A DNA stretch of 32,189 nt from an uncultured bacterium (GTDB lineage Bacteria > Margulisbacteria > CAYMKA01): positions 1 to 32,189 of the forward strand of contig CAYMKA010000002.1 in the NCBI GenBank assembly GCA_964390935.1, read 5' to 3'. Positions 4,583 to 32,189 of the stretch are shown in pieces. The notes under the pieces are model-generated. The model was not told where the DNA came from, ran no database searches, and saw nothing but the letters and a program-made list of their open reading frames with translations. The position numbers were made by a program, and so were the translations under genes. The first letter of the stretch is position 1, and the number at the start of each line of letters is the position of its first letter.

Positions 4583-4598
4583 TGGCAATCAGATTGCA
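4583..4598 (+). promoter_or_regulatory. Candidate sigma-54 (-24/-12) promoter
   Basis: TGGCAAtcagaTTGCA compared with the consensus TGGCAC-N5-TTGCA, with exact GG-N10-GC spacing (GG 4584-4585, GC 4596-4597). It lies in the intergenic region just upstream of the ATG at 4614. rpoN is encoded in this window. Confidence 0.4.
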
Positions 4599-4613: not shown

Positions 4614-4922
4614 ATGGAAACAATAGAAAAATGGAGCATGGCCAATGGGATTCACGAACTCAGTGACTGGACAATTATTACTAACCGCGGGCTTGATCCT
4701 GTGTATATTAATCTTGCAGCTCAAAGAGCACTAAATGTAAAAAGCGTCATTGATTGGAAAGAGTCCGAGCTGTTAGTCAAAATTATCGAAAACATCAAAA
4801 AAAGCACAACACATTATCAAAGCTTTAAAAATGGAGGTCGTGAATATTTTTCTTATTACGAGCTCATTATTGATAGAAATTTAAAAAACTATTTTCGAGT
4901 GGTCATTTCTCCTATTGCCTAA
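4614..4922 (+). CDS. Small hypothetical protein, possibly a stand-alone PAS-like domain
   Basis: 102-aa ORF. Its layout (GIHELSDWTIITNRGLDPVYINLAAQRALNV ... FKNGGREYFSYYELIIDRNLKNYFRVVISPI) resembles a PAS fold. There is no convincing SD, and the start is uncertain (alternative ATG at 4638). Confidence 0.4.
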   Translation: METIEKWSMANGIHELSDWTIITNRGLDPVYINLAAQRALNVKSVIDWKESELLVKIIENIKKSTTHYQSFKNGGREYFSYYELIIDRNLKNYFRVVISPIA

Positions 4923-5206
4923 TGATGCTTTTTAAAAATCAAAACCGAGTTTTTGCCCCCAAATCCGCTGCTATTCACCAAGGCATATTCGATTTCTTTT
5001 TTGCGAGCGACGTTGGGGATGTAATCCAAATCGCAATCCGGGTCGGGAAATTCATAATTAATGGTCGGTGGTAAAACCCCCTGCTCCAAGGCCATGAGAG
5101 CGGCCACCGACTGCATGGCTCCTGCTGGCCCTAAAGGATGGCCGATCATCGATTTAATCGAACTGCCTGGTACTTGATAGGCTGCACTGCCAAAAGCTTT
5201 TTTAAG
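4919..5206 (-). pseudogene. Beta-ketoacyl-ACP synthase (FabF/FabB-like) C-terminal fragment of about 95 aa; the N-terminal three quarters are missing
   Basis: The frame reads LKKAFGSAAYQVPGSSIKSMIGHPLGPAGAMQSVAALMALEQGVLPPTINYEFPDPDCDLDYIPNVARKKEIEYALVNSSGFGGKNSVLIFKKHH. This is collinear with the FabF C-terminus (..FG...VSSTKSMTGHLLGAAG...NSFGFGGTNGSLIFKK). An in-frame TGA sits upstream at 5222-5224. The active-site Cys region is absent. The annotated ORF 4919-5149 is only the ATG-initiated tail. Confidence 0.8.
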
Positions 5207-5394
5207 ATATCGAGACCATCTTCATTGGGAAAATTCAAATCTAAAAAAATTAAATCTATTTCTTGTTGTTTAAGTAAAGCAAAAGCTTCGTCGCTGTTTT
5301 GAGCTTCAAAAAAGGGATATTGATCTTTAAAAATATAAAACAGCGATTTACGGACTGACACATCGTCATCGATCGACAAAATAGAGTAAGCCAT
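5146..5394 (-). pseudogene. Truncated response-regulator receiver (REC) domain, N-terminal half only
   Basis: MAYSILSIDDDVSVRKSLF...DLIFLDLNFPNEDGLDILKKL contains the acidic pocket DDD and the phospho-acceptor Asp context (LDLNFP..DGL). It lacks beta4/beta5 (conserved T/S and K). After LKKL it runs into 14 unrelated codons, and its stop overlaps the ATG of the KAS fragment (ATGA). Confidence 0.65.
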
Positions 5395-5454
5395 GAATTG
5401 AGTATAAAAGTGCACTGTCCTTTGTGCAAATTATAATCAGATACTTTAAAAACT

Positions 5455-5575: not shown

Positions 5576-5938
5576 ATGAATAATTTACAAATCGTTTCCG
5601 ACTATCTGACTAGTGGCATCAATGTAAATGTCCAAAATGAGTTCGGCAATACTGCTATTCTGCTCGCTTCCTGTAATGGTAATTTTCAAATAGTGAAACA
5701 CTTATTTAAACATCGAGCCAATTTAAATCTTGCCAATAAACAAGGAGATACAGCTCTGATTTGGGCAGCAGACAAAGGACATAAGGAAATTGTTAAATTT
5801 CTCATCTTACATGGAGCAGATTTGCAAGCCGTCAATCAGATTGGTCGTTCGGCACTATTTTGGGCAGAACAAAACGGTCATGAAGAAGTCATCCAGATTA
5901 TTCGTGACGCTCAAAAAACTTTGTTTCTTATTGCCTGA
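5576..5938 (+). CDS. Ankyrin-repeat protein (about 3 repeats, 120 aa)
   Basis: Repeated G-TAL..AA..GH.EIVK.L...GA-type units: GNTAILLASCNGNFQIVKHLFKHRANLN, GDTALIWAADKGHKEIVKFLILHGADLQ and GRSALFWAEQNGHEEVIQII. Confidence 0.85.
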   Translation: MNNLQIVSDYLTSGINVNVQNEFGNTAILLASCNGNFQIVKHLFKHRANLNLANKQGDTALIWAADKGHKEIVKFLILHGADLQAVNQIGRSALFWAEQNGHEEVIQIIRDAQKTLFLIA

Positions 5939-21954: not shown

Positions 21955-23325
21955 ATGAAAATTAATTTACAAATGCAGCCGCGGCTGACGCTCTCGCAAA
22001 CGCTGACGCAAATTTTATCTCCCAAAACTTTGCAGCTGCTCAAAACAATTAATTTACCTTACCAAGAGCTGCTTGAAAAAATTGATCAAGAAAAAAATGA
22101 AAACCCGGTTCTTGAAGTCACTAAAAATGATGAATTAATGGAGTATGCCAAAGCGCTGAGTGCAACGATGCCGCTCTCTGGCAAAAAAGAATATAACCCT
22201 GATGATCCGTTAATGGATTTTCGCAGCAGCGAGATGACTCTTTTTGAACATTTGATGTCGCAATTACGTTTAGTGAATTTAAGTCCGCTAGAATATGAGA
22301 TCGGTGAGAAATTATTAGAAGCCATAGACGACCGTGGTTTTATTATTGGCTATCCCGAACTCAGACAAGAACTGATGGACAAACATCAAGTCAAAAGAAC
22401 TTACATTGATGCCTTACTTGAAATCATTCAAAGCTTTGAGCCGGACGGAGTCGGTGCCCGCAACGTTAAAGAATGTCTGATCATTCAAATTAATGAGTAT
22501 AACTTTGACAGTAAAGAACTTCAGGATGTGATCTACAAGGCCGTTAAATATCATTTTGAAGATTTAACGAAGAAAAAATTTGAACCTATTGCACAAGAAC
22601 TAGGAATTCCTGTCGAAGGCGTACAGCGCATTGCTGATTTTATTGAAAAAAATCTAAATCCTAATCCAGGCTCTGCTTTCACACGCAGCCATAGTCCTGA
22701 AATTGTAATTCCCTCATTTACTGTTTTTAAAACTGAGTCCGGACAATATAAAGGTATTAATCTGGAAGAAAAAAAGGGACCGCAACTCCGTATTAATGAG
22801 CAATATTTAAAAATGTTGGACGATCCCGGCGTGGATGCTGAAACCAAAAATTATGTTAAACAAAAACTAGAGGCGGCTAAAGATTTAATTTATAACCTGG
22901 AGCGTCGTATTGAGACAATTAATAAAATTTTAAACACGATTGTGGAGACTCAACAGGAATTTTTTGAACTGGGTTCTTTTTGGTTAAAACCCCTGCAACA
23001 AAGCACCTTGTCTGAAATGGTCGGGATTCATCCTTCGACGATTAGCAGAACTTGTTCGAGTAAATATATTCAAACCCCCAAAGGATTTTTTCCGCTCAAA
23101 TATTTATGTCCGCGCAATGTGCACGGTTATTCGCCTTACCAACTTAAAGCGATTATTAAAAGAATGGTCACAGAACACAAAGATTTGTCAGACCAAAAAT
23201 TAGCCAATTTGTTAGCAGAACGGGGCATTAATATAAAACGCAGAACCGTCACCAAATATCGCCACGAAGTCGGCGAAAAAAGTTCGTTCGAGAGAAAAAA
23301 GAATCCTAACCCAGCTTCAAACTAG
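21955..23325 (+). CDS. rpoN: RNA polymerase sigma-54 factor
   Basis: Gln/Leu-rich region I (MQPRLTLSQTLTQILSPKTLQLLKTINLPYQEL), an HTH (STLSEMVGIHPSTISR) and an RpoN box (RRTVTKYR). Confidence 0.93.
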   Translation: MKINLQMQPRLTLSQTLTQILSPKTLQLLKTINLPYQELLEKIDQEKNENPVLEVTKNDELMEYAKALSATMPLSGKKEYNPDDPLMDFRSSEMTLFEHLMSQLRLVNLSPLEYEIGEKLLEAIDDRGFIIGYPELRQELMDKHQVKRTYIDALLEIIQSFEPDGVGARNVKECLIIQINEYNFDSKELQDVIYKAVKYHFEDLTKKKFEPIAQELGIPVEGVQRIADFIEKNLNPNPGSAFTRSHSPEIVIPSFTVFKTESGQYKGINLEEKKGPQLRINEQYLKMLDDPGVDAETKNYVKQKLEAAKDLIYNLERRIETINKILNTIVETQQEFFELGSFWLKPLQQSTLSEMVGIHPSTISRTCSSKYIQTPKGFFPLKYLCPRNVHGYSPYQLKAIIKRMVTEHKDLSDQKLANLLAERGINIKRRTVTKYRHEVGEKSSFERKKNPNPASN

Positions 23326-29585: not shown

Positions 29586-29864
29586 TTACTGATTCCAGAA
29601 TTCCACGCCAATTTGGATATCGTTTTGGGGAATGTCATAAGGGGCTAAAACCATATAAATCGGCAGACGGTATTCTGCGAAAAAACGCATCCAATTAGCA
29701 TTTTGACCTTTGGGATCAAAGGCAAATTTGTAATGAAAGCCTAGGATGTTTACCCAGGTATTTTGAAAATAATATACCCCTCTTAAATTTTTAAATGTTT
29801 CAAAGCCATAATAAATCGACAAATCTGTTTGACCTGGTTTATTTTCATTAAAATTAAAACCCAT
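29586..29864 (-). pseudogene. C-terminal fragment of a split outer-membrane-type protein gene
   Basis: The 92-aa ORF starts MGFNFNENKP inside copy 1 of the 80-bp duplication. That peptide also ends the correct-frame part of the upstream fragment. The remainder is Tyr/Phe/Trp-rich and beta-strand-like, ending GVEFWNQ. Confidence 0.75.
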
Positions 29865-29995
29865 TTTCCCAGTCGATAAAATTAACCAGTCATCATAGTT
29901 GGTCGCTCTAAAATAGGTTTATTTTCATTAAAATTAAAACCCATTTTCCCAGTCGATAAAATTAACCAGTCATCATAGTTGGTCGCTCTAAAATC
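29836..29995. repeat. Perfect 2 x 80-bp tandem direct duplication (79/80 identical)
   Basis: 29836-29915 and 29916-29995 are identical base for base except the last position (A at 29915, C at 29995). GGTTT occurs at the start of each copy and immediately after copy 2 (29996-30000), giving 5-bp microhomology. Confidence 0.95.
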
Positions 29996-30757
29996 GGTTT
30001 GACGATGATCCATTCGAAAATACCAGTCTTGCCATAAGTTTTTTTGTTTTAATTCTTTGTAAAAACGAAAACCATAAACCGTGTCGTCATTGGGACCAGT
30101 CTTAGGAAAAGGCGCATAAGGCACAATCAAAGGATCAGGTCCTTTATCATTCAGAACACTGTACGTAGCCTGATAAACATACAATTCAAAATCGTCGATC
30201 AAAGATAACAAGCCGTCTTTAAAAGCATTGTTGCCCCGAAAAGGTTTGGTACGCAAACCAAGAGCAGGGGCGACATGGTTAAAATATTCTTCTTGATCGC
30301 CGCCATATAAAATTTCGCCACCCAAATAAGGCTCTAAAGTTAAGCTGTCACCCAAATAAAATCGATAGCCCAAACGGGGCTCTAGCCTTAAAGAAAATTT
30401 GTTATAACCTTTCGACTGACGAGGCTGCAACTTGGTGGTTGCATAATCTAATCGGCCGTAGCCAGGCTCAAAATAAAAACCATTGCGATTTAAATTTCCT
30501 TGAGGAGTCTGTGTCACCACTTCTTTTGTTGGCAGTGGTTTAAGGGGTTGAGTCTGAATTAAAGGCACGGATTTTGCGCCAGGATTAATCGACTGCTGTT
30601 CCATGTATTTTTTAAGAGGGATGACTTTGATGTTTTGATTTGCTGAAACTAACTTATTGCTTTTAATTAAATTAAGATCATCATAACCAGCCAAAACAAT
30701 TGAAAAATTAAAAAGCGAAAAACAAATAAGTGCCGCCCCAAAAATTTTTATTTGCAC
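29882..30757 (-). pseudogene. N-terminal fragment of the same split gene (signal peptide plus beta-rich body)
   Basis: Signal peptide MQIKIFGAALICFSLFNFSIVLA. The frame is correct through ...STGKMGFNFNENKP, then reads 10 junk codons (ILERPTMMTG) to a stop after crossing the duplication junction. Confidence 0.75.
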
Positions 30758-30801
30758 CGACCGATTATAACGTTAGGTCTTTTTCTTAAAAGGCCTCCAT
30801 T

Positions 30802-30840
30802 TGGCTTATAACTTGCGTAAAAGAGCTTCTCTGTTATACT
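30802..30840 (+). promoter_or_regulatory. Candidate promoter(s) of the histone-like gene
   Basis: Sigma-70-like TTGCGT-N16-TATACT (30813-30818 / 30835-30840). An overlapping sigma-54-like TGGCTTataacTTGCG (30802-30817) has GG-N10-GC spacing. I cannot tell which, if either, is used. Confidence 0.3.
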
Positions 30841-30869
30841 GCGCTATCTTATTTAAGAAAGGAGCTCTC

Positions 30870-31061
30870 ATGGCAAAAAAAGGCGGAAAAGAAGTTTTAG
30901 TAGTGACTTCAAAAGTAAAAGCGTTCAACAAAAGCAAAAAGTTTTTGACTTCAGCTGATTCAATTCAAGCTTTAAACGAAAAAATTTATACTCTTTTGGA
31001 AAATGCTCATACTCGTACAAAAGCAAATAAACGTTCTACTATTAAGCCTCAAGATTTCTAA
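30870..31061 (+). CDS. Bacterial histone-fold DNA-binding protein (HBb/Bd0055-like), 63 aa
   Basis: MAKKGGKEVLVVTSKVKAFNKSKKFLTSADSIQALNEKIYTLLENAHTRTKANKRSTIKPQDF is basic, with a short helix, a loop and a long helix. KRSTIKPQD corresponds to the GRKTIKAED motif of archaeal HMf histones. An AAGGAG SD lies 5 nt before the ATG at 30870, and an intrinsic terminator follows. The TTG at 30801 is an ORF-caller extension. Confidence 0.7.
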   Translation: MAKKGGKEVLVVTSKVKAFNKSKKFLTSADSIQALNEKIYTLLENAHTRTKANKRSTIKPQDF

Positions 31062-31086
31062 TAATCTTTTGATTTAGTATTAGAAG

Positions 31087-31121
31087 CCCCGTTAGATTTA
31101 AAAATTTAACGGGGTTTTTTT
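31087..31121 (+). terminator. Rho-independent terminator of the histone-like gene
   Basis: CCCCGTTAgattt / aaatTTAACGGGG inverted repeat (31087-31114) followed by T7 (31115-21), beginning 26 nt after the stop codon. Confidence 0.8.
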
Positions 31122-31138
31122 ATTTTAGAAGAAATTAA

Positions 31139-31891
31139 TTAAGATTCGTAATCAATACGCGCAGGCAATACAAAAAGTTTATTAATCCCGATGTAATAAA
31201 AAATAAACCACAGCGCCATCCACATTAAACTTAGATAATAAACTGAAACAGTTCTTAAATTAGCCCAAATTTCAGGAACATCTGTAAAAATAATCATCAG
31301 GCCCACAATTCCTAAAATGAGAAAACCCTTAAAACGTTCGGTCTTTCGGTAAGCGGGGGAGCTGGTGAATACTCTGGAGAAAAAAACAATAGAGAAGAAG
31401 CCAAAAATGACCAGCCAGATAAACCCCTGAATCGTTAACATCACATCTCGGCCAAAGGCATTGATTTGAGGATCTAAAATCAAATCAGTTTCAAAAGCCA
31501 GATTCCAGGAACCAAATTCATAAAATGAGCAAAAAATAGCAATAATGACCCCCATGCTGTTAATAAAGTATCGGCGCTGAGCCAAATCAACTTTTAAATA
31601 AGTGGCTAAAAACATCGTGATAAAAAAAACAAAACAAATGCTTGAGAACTGCCAGCCCATTTTAAAAATCATGCCTGAAATCATGGCATGTCCCGATAAG
31701 AAAAAGTAAATTTGCCCCAGCAGAAAAAATAAAGGTTTAGTGGTAATGGCCATTAAAGCCAGAGTTGCCCAAAACAATTCTTTTTTGTTTTTATTTATAA
31801 AATATTTGCCGAGCAATATCCCTGACAAAATGCCGCCAATAATTAAAACCACCAGTTCGGCAAAAATGACAAAAAGCATTTCAACGGTCAT
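31139..31891 (-). CDS. Polytopic integral membrane protein of unknown function (250 aa)
   Basis: About 7-8 hydrophobic helices. It starts 5 nt downstream of the GT2 gene stop, so it is probably co-transcribed. I recognise no family motif. Confidence 0.55.
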   Translation of the reverse strand: MTVEMLFVIFAELVVLIIGGILSGILLGKYFINKNKKELFWATLALMAITTKPLFFLLGQIYFFLSGHAMISGMIFKMGWQFSSICFVFFITMFLATYLKVDLAQRRYFINSMGVIIAIFCSFYEFGSWNLAFETDLILDPQINAFGRDVMLTIQGFIWLVIFGFFSIVFFSRVFTSSPAYRKTERFKGFLILGIVGLMIIFTDVPEIWANLRTVSVYYLSLMWMALWFIFYYIGINKLFVLPARIDYES

Positions 31892-31896
31892 GTTTT

Positions 31897-32189
31897 TTAC
31901 CTAAAGGGTTTGAAGTCAGCACTGGAATGGCCGCGAAAATACATATTGAGATAGTTTTTAAGATGATGCCAAAAAAACTTAGCGACTCCCATGCCCAGGA
32001 CACGCCTTGCAGAGGTAAAGACAACCAGTCTTGAATCATAAAGAATTTTGCCTTGAGAACGAATACGTAACCCCAAATCAACATCTTCAGCAGTAACAAG
32101 TTCAGTGCGGTATCCCCCGATCGCTTTATAAGCAGATTGGCGTACTGCAAAATTCATGCCTGATAAATGTGGTTGTCCTGATAAATGAT
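31897..32189 (-). CDS. Family-2 glycosyltransferase, C-terminal part; the 5' end lies outside the window
   Basis: The frame is open to the window edge (..HLSGQPHLSGMNFAVRQSAYKAIGGYRTELVTAEDVDLGLRIRSQGKILY). G.N.A.RR......GG......EDxDL..R is the typical GT2 C-terminal half. The ATG at 32157 is internal. Confidence 0.75.
   Translation of the reverse strand, partial: HLSGQPHLSGMNFAVRQSAYKAIGGYRTELVTAEDVDLGLRIRSQGKILYDSRLVVFTSARRVLGMGVAKFFWHHLKNYLNMYFRGHSSADFKPFR

Follow-up and report, generated by a model that had tools for sequence, protein, structure and literature searches.

A stand-alone bacterial gene for a probable face-to-face histone with a truncated third helix, related to HLp of Leptospira

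Described histones closest to the locus

In the histones with a truncated third helix (alpha3), as the family is defined, alpha3 has 3-4 residues and alpha2 is shortened (Schwab et al., Nat Commun 2024, PMC11390915). This family's face-to-face (FtF) members form a closed torus tetramer. Conservation in these is strongest at R48, N52, R54, T56 and D61 together with K16 (numbered as in the profile); the dimers contact each other through R48 and N52, and the RxTxxxxD motif carries no conserved lysine after the first arginine (PMC11390915). In the 'bacterial dimer' histones of the HBb type, R48 and N52 are missing and the motif reads RKT (PMC11390915). FtF histones of bacteria usually bear positively charged tails, whereas those of archaea do not (PMC11390915).

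HLp of Leptospira perolatii (9QT0, 9QT1 and 9QT2; Hu et al., Nat Commun 2025, PMC12701072) is a bacterial histone of known structure, and LA_2458 of L. interrogans is a related orthologue. In the HLp crystal, R49, S52 and N53 from one chain meet R55, T61 and F63 from the chain opposite at the tetramer interface, while DNA is contacted by A13, S14, K15, K17, K21, T27, G29, T56 and T57 (PMC12701072). The L. interrogans orthologue ranks with the cell's most abundant proteins, and its deletion was not achieved (PMC12701072).

HBb (Bd0055) of Bdellovibrio bacteriovorus is a 'bacterial dimer' alpha3 histone (8CMP, 8FVX, 9EZZ; PMC10627809, PMC11317129). It is strictly dimeric and bends DNA (in vitro, end-on coating) instead of wrapping it. 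Archaeal members of the FtF subfamily include HTkC of Thermococcus kodakarensis (9F2C), which crystallized as a torus tetramer, and the histones of DPANN archaea and haloarchaea (PMC11390915). Two further groups share the histone fold. HMfA and HMfB (CBFD_NFYB_HMF, PF00808) have an alpha3 of about 10 residues and an alpha2 that is 4-5 residues longer than in the protein reported here; their tetramers have a single four-helix-bundle interface and build open-ended hypernucleosomes. The DUF1931 proteins (PF09123; Aquifex Aq_328, 1R4V; Thermus, 1WWI) carry two folds per chain as pseudodimers without the DNA-binding residues (PMC12701072) or the assembly residues. DUF1931 was also the depositor's automatic name for HLp.

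A stand-alone gene and its surroundings

The window, by which we mean the whole stretch of 32,189 nucleotides analysed, has a G+C content of 38.3%. The gene studied here is an ORF on the plus strand at 30870..31061, with an ATG at 30870, a TAA ending at 31061 and 63 codons before the stop. Its 63-residue product, MAKKGGKEVLVVTSKVKAFNKSKKFLTSADSIQALNEKIYTLLENAHTRTKANKRSTIKPQDF, is rich in lysine (12 Lys and 2 Arg versus 5 Asp/Glu), with a pI of 10.2, a mass of 7.05 kDa and a net charge of about +9. The neighbouring genes, at 29586-30757 upstream and 31139-31891 downstream, are both on the minus strand, so that the histone gene stands alone. No second histone copy was found within the window.

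A Shine-Dalgarno site, GAAAGGAG, was read from the sequence at 30857..30864 (+), 5 nt upstream of the ATG, and its AAAGGAG core is invariant in all six orthologous loci, including the 65%-identical locus L001. An intrinsic terminator lies at about 31082..31126 (+), where a hairpin with a CCCCG/CGGGG core is followed by a run of seven T. The hairpin occupies 31082-31119, begins 20 nt after the stop codon and folds with -21.4 kcal/mol (z = -6.8); none of 200 shuffled sequences folded as well. A hairpin and a T-run follow the stop codon at every orthologous locus. In locus L036 the stem sequence is wholly different and hairpin and T-run are nevertheless present, which indicates that termination has been kept as a function and not as a sequence. 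The histone gene is its own transcription unit. A sequence-only reading of the window had described a stand-alone histone-fold gene with a Shine-Dalgarno site and its own terminator, and all of these parts were confirmed. Rfam at its gathering score gave nothing in the window. In permissive mode, sub-threshold Rfam matches fell on the terminator hairpin only and were treated as chance. A tRNA scan found no tRNA.

The ORF is conserved as a protein-coding gene. Gene calls on 22 public metagenome contigs give exactly this protein, and those on another 15 give one that is 90% identical. Between the window and locus L026, all eight nucleotide differences in the gene are at third codon positions (dN = 0, dS = 0.20), and comparison with loci L032, L036 and L037 gave dN/dS ratios of 0.08-0.15 at dS values of 0.4-0.75. 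With the Shine-Dalgarno site, the leader and the terminator also kept, the ORF is a real gene under purifying selection. A longer in-frame reading from a TTG at 30801 was rejected since this codon is TGG in L036 and L037; the Shine-Dalgarno site serves the ATG at 30870, relatives start with M-A-K-K, and HLp aligns over 1-63 without a gap.

When the window is compared with L032, L036 and L037, the loci from which the gene itself is separated by the dS values given above, the 69-nt leader (30801..30869) shows just 3-4 differences, whereas 11 of 43 positions differ in the distal part of the same intergenic region. A strict sigma-70 promoter scan upstream of the histone gene gave no site. Within the leader, a candidate extended -10 element, TGTTATACT, was found by pattern search at 30832..30840 (+), with a weak -35 (TTGCGT) 16 nt upstream; this pattern has two matches, which is the chance level. 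As a weak lead, a candidate sigma-54-type -24/-12 element, TGGCTTATAACTTGC, fits the pattern TGGC-N7-TTGC at 30802..30816 (+). The window holds four matches to this pattern versus 1.44 expected, the GG and GC of the element are retained in all close relatives, and rpoN lies at 21955-23325, about 8 kb from the histone gene. Both the sigma-54-like element and the extended -10 were picked out by eye and pattern search, occur at near-chance frequencies and are kept in close relatives only; neither was found upstream of the distant orthologues L001 and L038. If the sigma-54-type element works, histone dosage in this lineage would be switched on by an enhancer-binding protein, which we consider quite improbable; chromatin compaction would then be regulated, possibly in a life-cycle-dependent manner, rather than constitutive. 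Another match to the pattern, at 4583..4597, stands immediately before the ORF at 4614..4922. Folding of the 5' leader paired the Shine-Dalgarno site with an upstream stretch, without significance (z = -0.97).

The window genes are an ordinary bacterial chromosomal set. They encode a pyruvate:ferredoxin oxidoreductase fragment, a thioredoxin-reductase-like protein, an MqnA-like protein, a class I ribonucleotide reductase, glycerol kinase, two PMT_2 glycosyltransferases, NifU, ComM, TrmB, an M23 peptidase, RpoN, TsaD, an RNase III-like protein, a CitMHS transporter, HSP20 and BipA. No mobile-element or phage genes were found in the window. The order BipA, a 363-396-residue protein, the histone, a 250-residue membrane protein, a GT2 glycosyltransferase and Mrp-Nuo-type antiporter subunits is kept in relatives with about 80-99% DNA identity. 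Synteny was absent between the histone locus of the window and those of L001, the 71%-identical P0002 and Leptospira hlp. The Leptospira gene has SMC, MAP and DUF350 genes as neighbours (PMC12701072), whereas the histone gene of the window is divergent from a gene for a secreted or membrane protein and convergent with that for the 250-residue membrane protein. A GTDB scan with the histone gave, as the nearest match, one bacterial MAG, 'Deltaproteobacteria bacterium RIFCSPHIGHO2_02_FULL_40_28' from groundwater (65% identity, no synteny), and 24 other loci, almost all of them in DPANN or unclassified archaeal MAGs. The distribution published for bacterial FtF histones (PMC11390915) would be compatible with a source in the Bdellovibrionota, class Bacteriovoracia.

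Several observations were made on other genes of the window. The upstream gene (29586..30757) encodes a protein that belongs to no Pfam family and carries a signal-like hydrophobic stretch at its N-terminus. Inside this minus-strand gene, an 80-bp tandem duplication (2.1 copies, 98% match; 29836..30000) splits the reading frame into ORFs of 291 and 92 residues, both of which contain MGFNFNENKP; on the 99.5%-identical contig L027, the same gene is a single ORF of 363 residues with one 80-bp copy. The duplication is either a genuine frameshifting one, which would make the gene a pseudogene, or an assembly artefact. Around its GTG start (30757..30775, minus strand), this divergent gene has a perfect TATAAT about 6 nt before the start codon and no Shine-Dalgarno sequence, and the string GATTATA is invariant in six of six aligned loci, L001 included. 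Either a leaderless mRNA or a miscalled start may explain this. On the other side, the gene at 31139..31891 (-) encodes the 250-residue multi-pass membrane protein, which has no Pfam family, is 90-100% conserved in close relatives, and in these is always convergent with the histone gene and adjoins the GT2 glycosyltransferase gene; a partial ORF lies at 31897..32157 (-).

Farther away, two short back-to-back ORFs at 4919..5415 (-) resemble gene fragments by eye. The one of 76 residues looks like the C-terminal end of a beta-ketoacyl-ACP synthase (…NSSGFGGKNSVLIFKK), and the one of 89 residues looks like the N-terminal half of a response-regulator receiver domain. The gene at 5576..5938 (+) encodes a protein of 120 residues that consists of ankyrin repeats only (Pfam Ank_2 and Ank_4; E about 1e-23). 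Such ankyrin-only proteins are uncommon in free-living bacteria.

Fold and subfamily of the product

The sequence-only reading had named profile similarity to histones and a predicted histone fold as tests of its claim, and the product passed both. In a sequence search of the PDB, the best match was HLp (9QT0, with 9QT1 and 9QT2; E=9.9e-18, 66.1 bits), aligned without a gap over residues 1-63 with 52% identity and 78% positives by BLASTP. Bd0055/HBb (8CMP, 8FVX) followed with E=3.6e-4 and 23.9 bits (43% identity over 56 residues, one gap), and HTkC (9F2C) with E=0.28. A profile built from 60 relatives gave E-values of 2.4e-28 for HLp, 4e-16 for HBb and 8.4e-15 for HTkC, with weaker matches to archaeal histones (HTkA-type, HmvA, HMk, HMfA/B), NF-YB and H4. 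No Pfam family scored above its curated threshold: DUF1931 reached 17.7 bits (cut-off 21.8) with a match that spans only profile positions 23-52 of 138, Histone reached 15.9 (26.4) and CBFD_NFYB_HMF reached 13.0 (21.4). NCBIfam likewise gave nothing relevant above threshold. The family assignment thus rests on the PDB sequence search, the profile searches and structure.

An AlphaFold2 single-chain model, built on the alignment of 60 relatives, has a mean pLDDT of 87.3. It predicts helices at residues 13-22, 29-52 (24 residues) and 60-62 (3 residues), which divides the chain into a basic N-terminal tail (1-8), alpha1 (13-22), L1 (23-28), alpha2 (29-52), L2 (53-59) and alpha3 (60-62). The top Foldseek match of the model in the PDB was HLp (TMq/TMt 0.85/0.95, rmsd 0.8 A), and HBb (TM 0.84/0.85) and HTkC (TM 0.82/0.88) came next. 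The remainder were eukaryotic core histones and other histone-fold proteins, and all of the top 50 matches were histones or histone-fold proteins. By these searches and the model, the window gene encodes a histone-fold protein.

The predicted protein belongs by the length of its third helix to the alpha3-truncated family, as the modelled alpha3 takes up residues 60-62 and F63, which comes directly after D62, closes the chain. The sequence-only reading had remarked on a very short alpha3; the three residues bear this out, although the shortness is not peculiar to this copy and defines the whole alpha3-histone family. K17, R49, N53, R55, T57 and D62 correspond to residues 16, 48, 52, 54, 56 and 61 of the published FtF profile, shifted by one. 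The motif reads R55-S56-T57-I-K-P-Q-D62, within KRSTIKPQD at residues 54-62, and is thus RST and not RKT. In the alignment of 60 sequences (A1), R55 and D62 never vary, and conservation is at least 90% for R49, N53 and T57. An exhaustive HMMER scan of 1.84 billion cluster representatives gave 157 clusters at E<=1e-3. Among 158 compared sequences (retrieved relatives together with HLp and the entry of the query itself), R49 and N53 occur together in 137, the full R-N-R-T-D set in 129, and the chain ends one residue after D62 in 115. On alignment, all published sequence features diagnostic for FtF histones are present in the window protein. The basic N-terminal tail (MAKKGGKE) is also consistent with a bacterial FtF histone, whereas the archaeal FtF proteins, at 56 residues and 32-49% identity, have no tail, the DPANN homologues among them. 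The DPANN homologues have the string RAKANKRSTI...D in common with the window protein and stop at the same point.

Many of the retrieved relatives are longer. P0011, P0016, P0022, P0026 and others (118-160 residues) match the query twice and are natural two-fold (doublet) versions of the FtF type, and other relatives have N-terminal extensions of up to about 150 residues.

The comparison with HLp can be carried to single residues. Both proteins have 63 residues and an N-terminal tail (in the HLp crystal the first seven residues are not resolved), and both are encoded by single stand-alone genes; the tail is more basic in the window protein (KKGGK versus QNAEK in HLp), whose host is uncultured. 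At the tetramer interface, R49, N53, R55 and F63 are identical, while S52 is replaced by alanine and T61 by glutamine. The identical residues include all three that have been termed conserved in tetrameric bacterial FtF histones (PMC12701072). The positions that contact DNA in HLp are here T13, S14, K15, K17, K21, T27, A29, S56 and T57, so that A13T, G29A and T56S are conservative changes and the other six are the same. In the hydrophobic stretch of alpha2, one residue differs (L47H).

On these grounds we conclude that the window gene very probably encodes a singlet FtF alpha3-truncated histone, an orthologue-like relative of HLp of L. perolatii. The sequence-only reading had instead called the product HBb/Bd0055-like. 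A histone of that type would stay dimeric, either bending DNA locally in the manner of HU/IHF or coating straight DNA end-on. Several features speak for that assignment. HBb is a singlet with the same alpha3-truncated fold and the R-x-T...D clamp, it is 43% identical to the window protein over 56 residues, the model fits it with TM 0.84-0.85, and the stretch EVLVVTSKVK (residues 8-17 here), which had been likened to the N-terminus of Bd0055, is indeed identical to residues 3-12 of 8fvx_A. S52A and T61Q could furthermore weaken a tetramer of the HLp kind. However, HLp is far closer (E=1e-17 versus 4e-4; 66.1 versus 23.9 bits) and is the nearest solved relative, and the same order holds in the profile comparison (2.4e-28 versus 4e-16). 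The window protein carries R49 and N53 where HBb, as read from the alignment, has S and D, and the RKT of HBb is RST here. HBb also has one extra residue in L1, so its alignment needs a one-residue gap there, and its chain (64 residues, aligned to 58) runs on where that of the window protein stops one residue after D62. We therefore regard an HBb-type dimer as unlikely, and the unconventional DNA-binding mode of Bd0055, which had been invoked for this protein, is not the best model given the affinity to HLp and the FtF histones. The suspicion that the oligomer geometry may differ pointed in the right direction.

The product could also be a histone fold that does not organize DNA, either a scaffold between proteins or a DUF1931-like protein no longer able to bind DNA. 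It has been pointed out that prokaryotic histone-fold proteins need not all organize genomes (Schwab et al., PMC11390915), and DUF1931 was the best Pfam match, albeit below threshold. This is highly improbable, since the window protein is a singlet with a charge of about +9 and not a pseudodimer, and the Lys, Ser and Thr residues that contact DNA in the HLp-DNA crystals are conserved. The window protein likewise falls outside the archaeal nucleosomal histones (PF00808), given the sub-threshold score and an alpha3 of three residues instead of about 10; HMfA and HMfB share the fold and the RxTxxxxD loop clamp with it. Last, the ORF is short and lies in an AT-rich genome, and the alpha3 family includes phage histones (PMC11390915), so that a chance ORF or a recent acquisition via a mobile element or phage might be considered. 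The results effectively refute this: dN/dS is 0-0.15, the identical protein recurs on 22 contigs, synteny with housekeeping genes is kept in relatives at roughly 80-99% DNA identity, the window is without mobile-element genes, and a tblastn search of 50,697 phage records gave no homologue of the histone.

Proposed assembly and place in the histone family

Most likely, the predicted FtF histone functions in the nucleoid as a homotetramer that binds DNA without sequence specificity and wraps about 60 bp. By analogy with HLp (PMC12701072) and HTkC (PMC11390915), two chains would pair through alpha2 into an antiparallel histone-fold dimer. Two dimers would then close face to face into a rigid torus homotetramer through the C-terminal part of alpha2, L2 and the alpha3 stub, with R49, N53, R55 and the C-terminal F63 as the contacts. 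We infer the homotetramer from the four of six HLp interface residues that are kept, including R49, N53 and R55. As a weaker possibility, S52A, T61Q and L47H leave room for a weaker oligomer than the HLp tetramer, or for another one.

In the tetramer, S14, K15, K17 and K21 of alpha1, T27 of L1 and S56 and T57 of L2 would form a continuous basic band that binds the DNA backbone without sequence specificity, and roughly 60 bp of DNA would be wrapped around it. The protein would thereby act as an abundant nucleoid-compacting protein of the source bacterium. Such a major nucleoid role with high expression is plausible because the L. interrogans orthologue is highly abundant and resisted deletion.

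The family, its signature residues, the fold, a crystal structure at 52% identity and the mechanism have already been published, and the automatic annotation of JGI labels 90%-identical relatives 'histone H3/H4'. The current understanding of these proteins is unchanged by this gene, and the window histone is a rare, neat but unsurprising addition to a known family. To our knowledge, in-depth experiments exist for only two bacterial histones, the dimer HBb, which bends DNA, and the tetramer HLp, which wraps it. The window gene provides a clean and compact example of the FtF type from outside Leptospira, in an uncultured bacterium of low G+C content, with its leader and terminator well defined. 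It could offer a second case among bacteria in which to ask whether DNA wrapping by tetramers holds throughout the FtF family.
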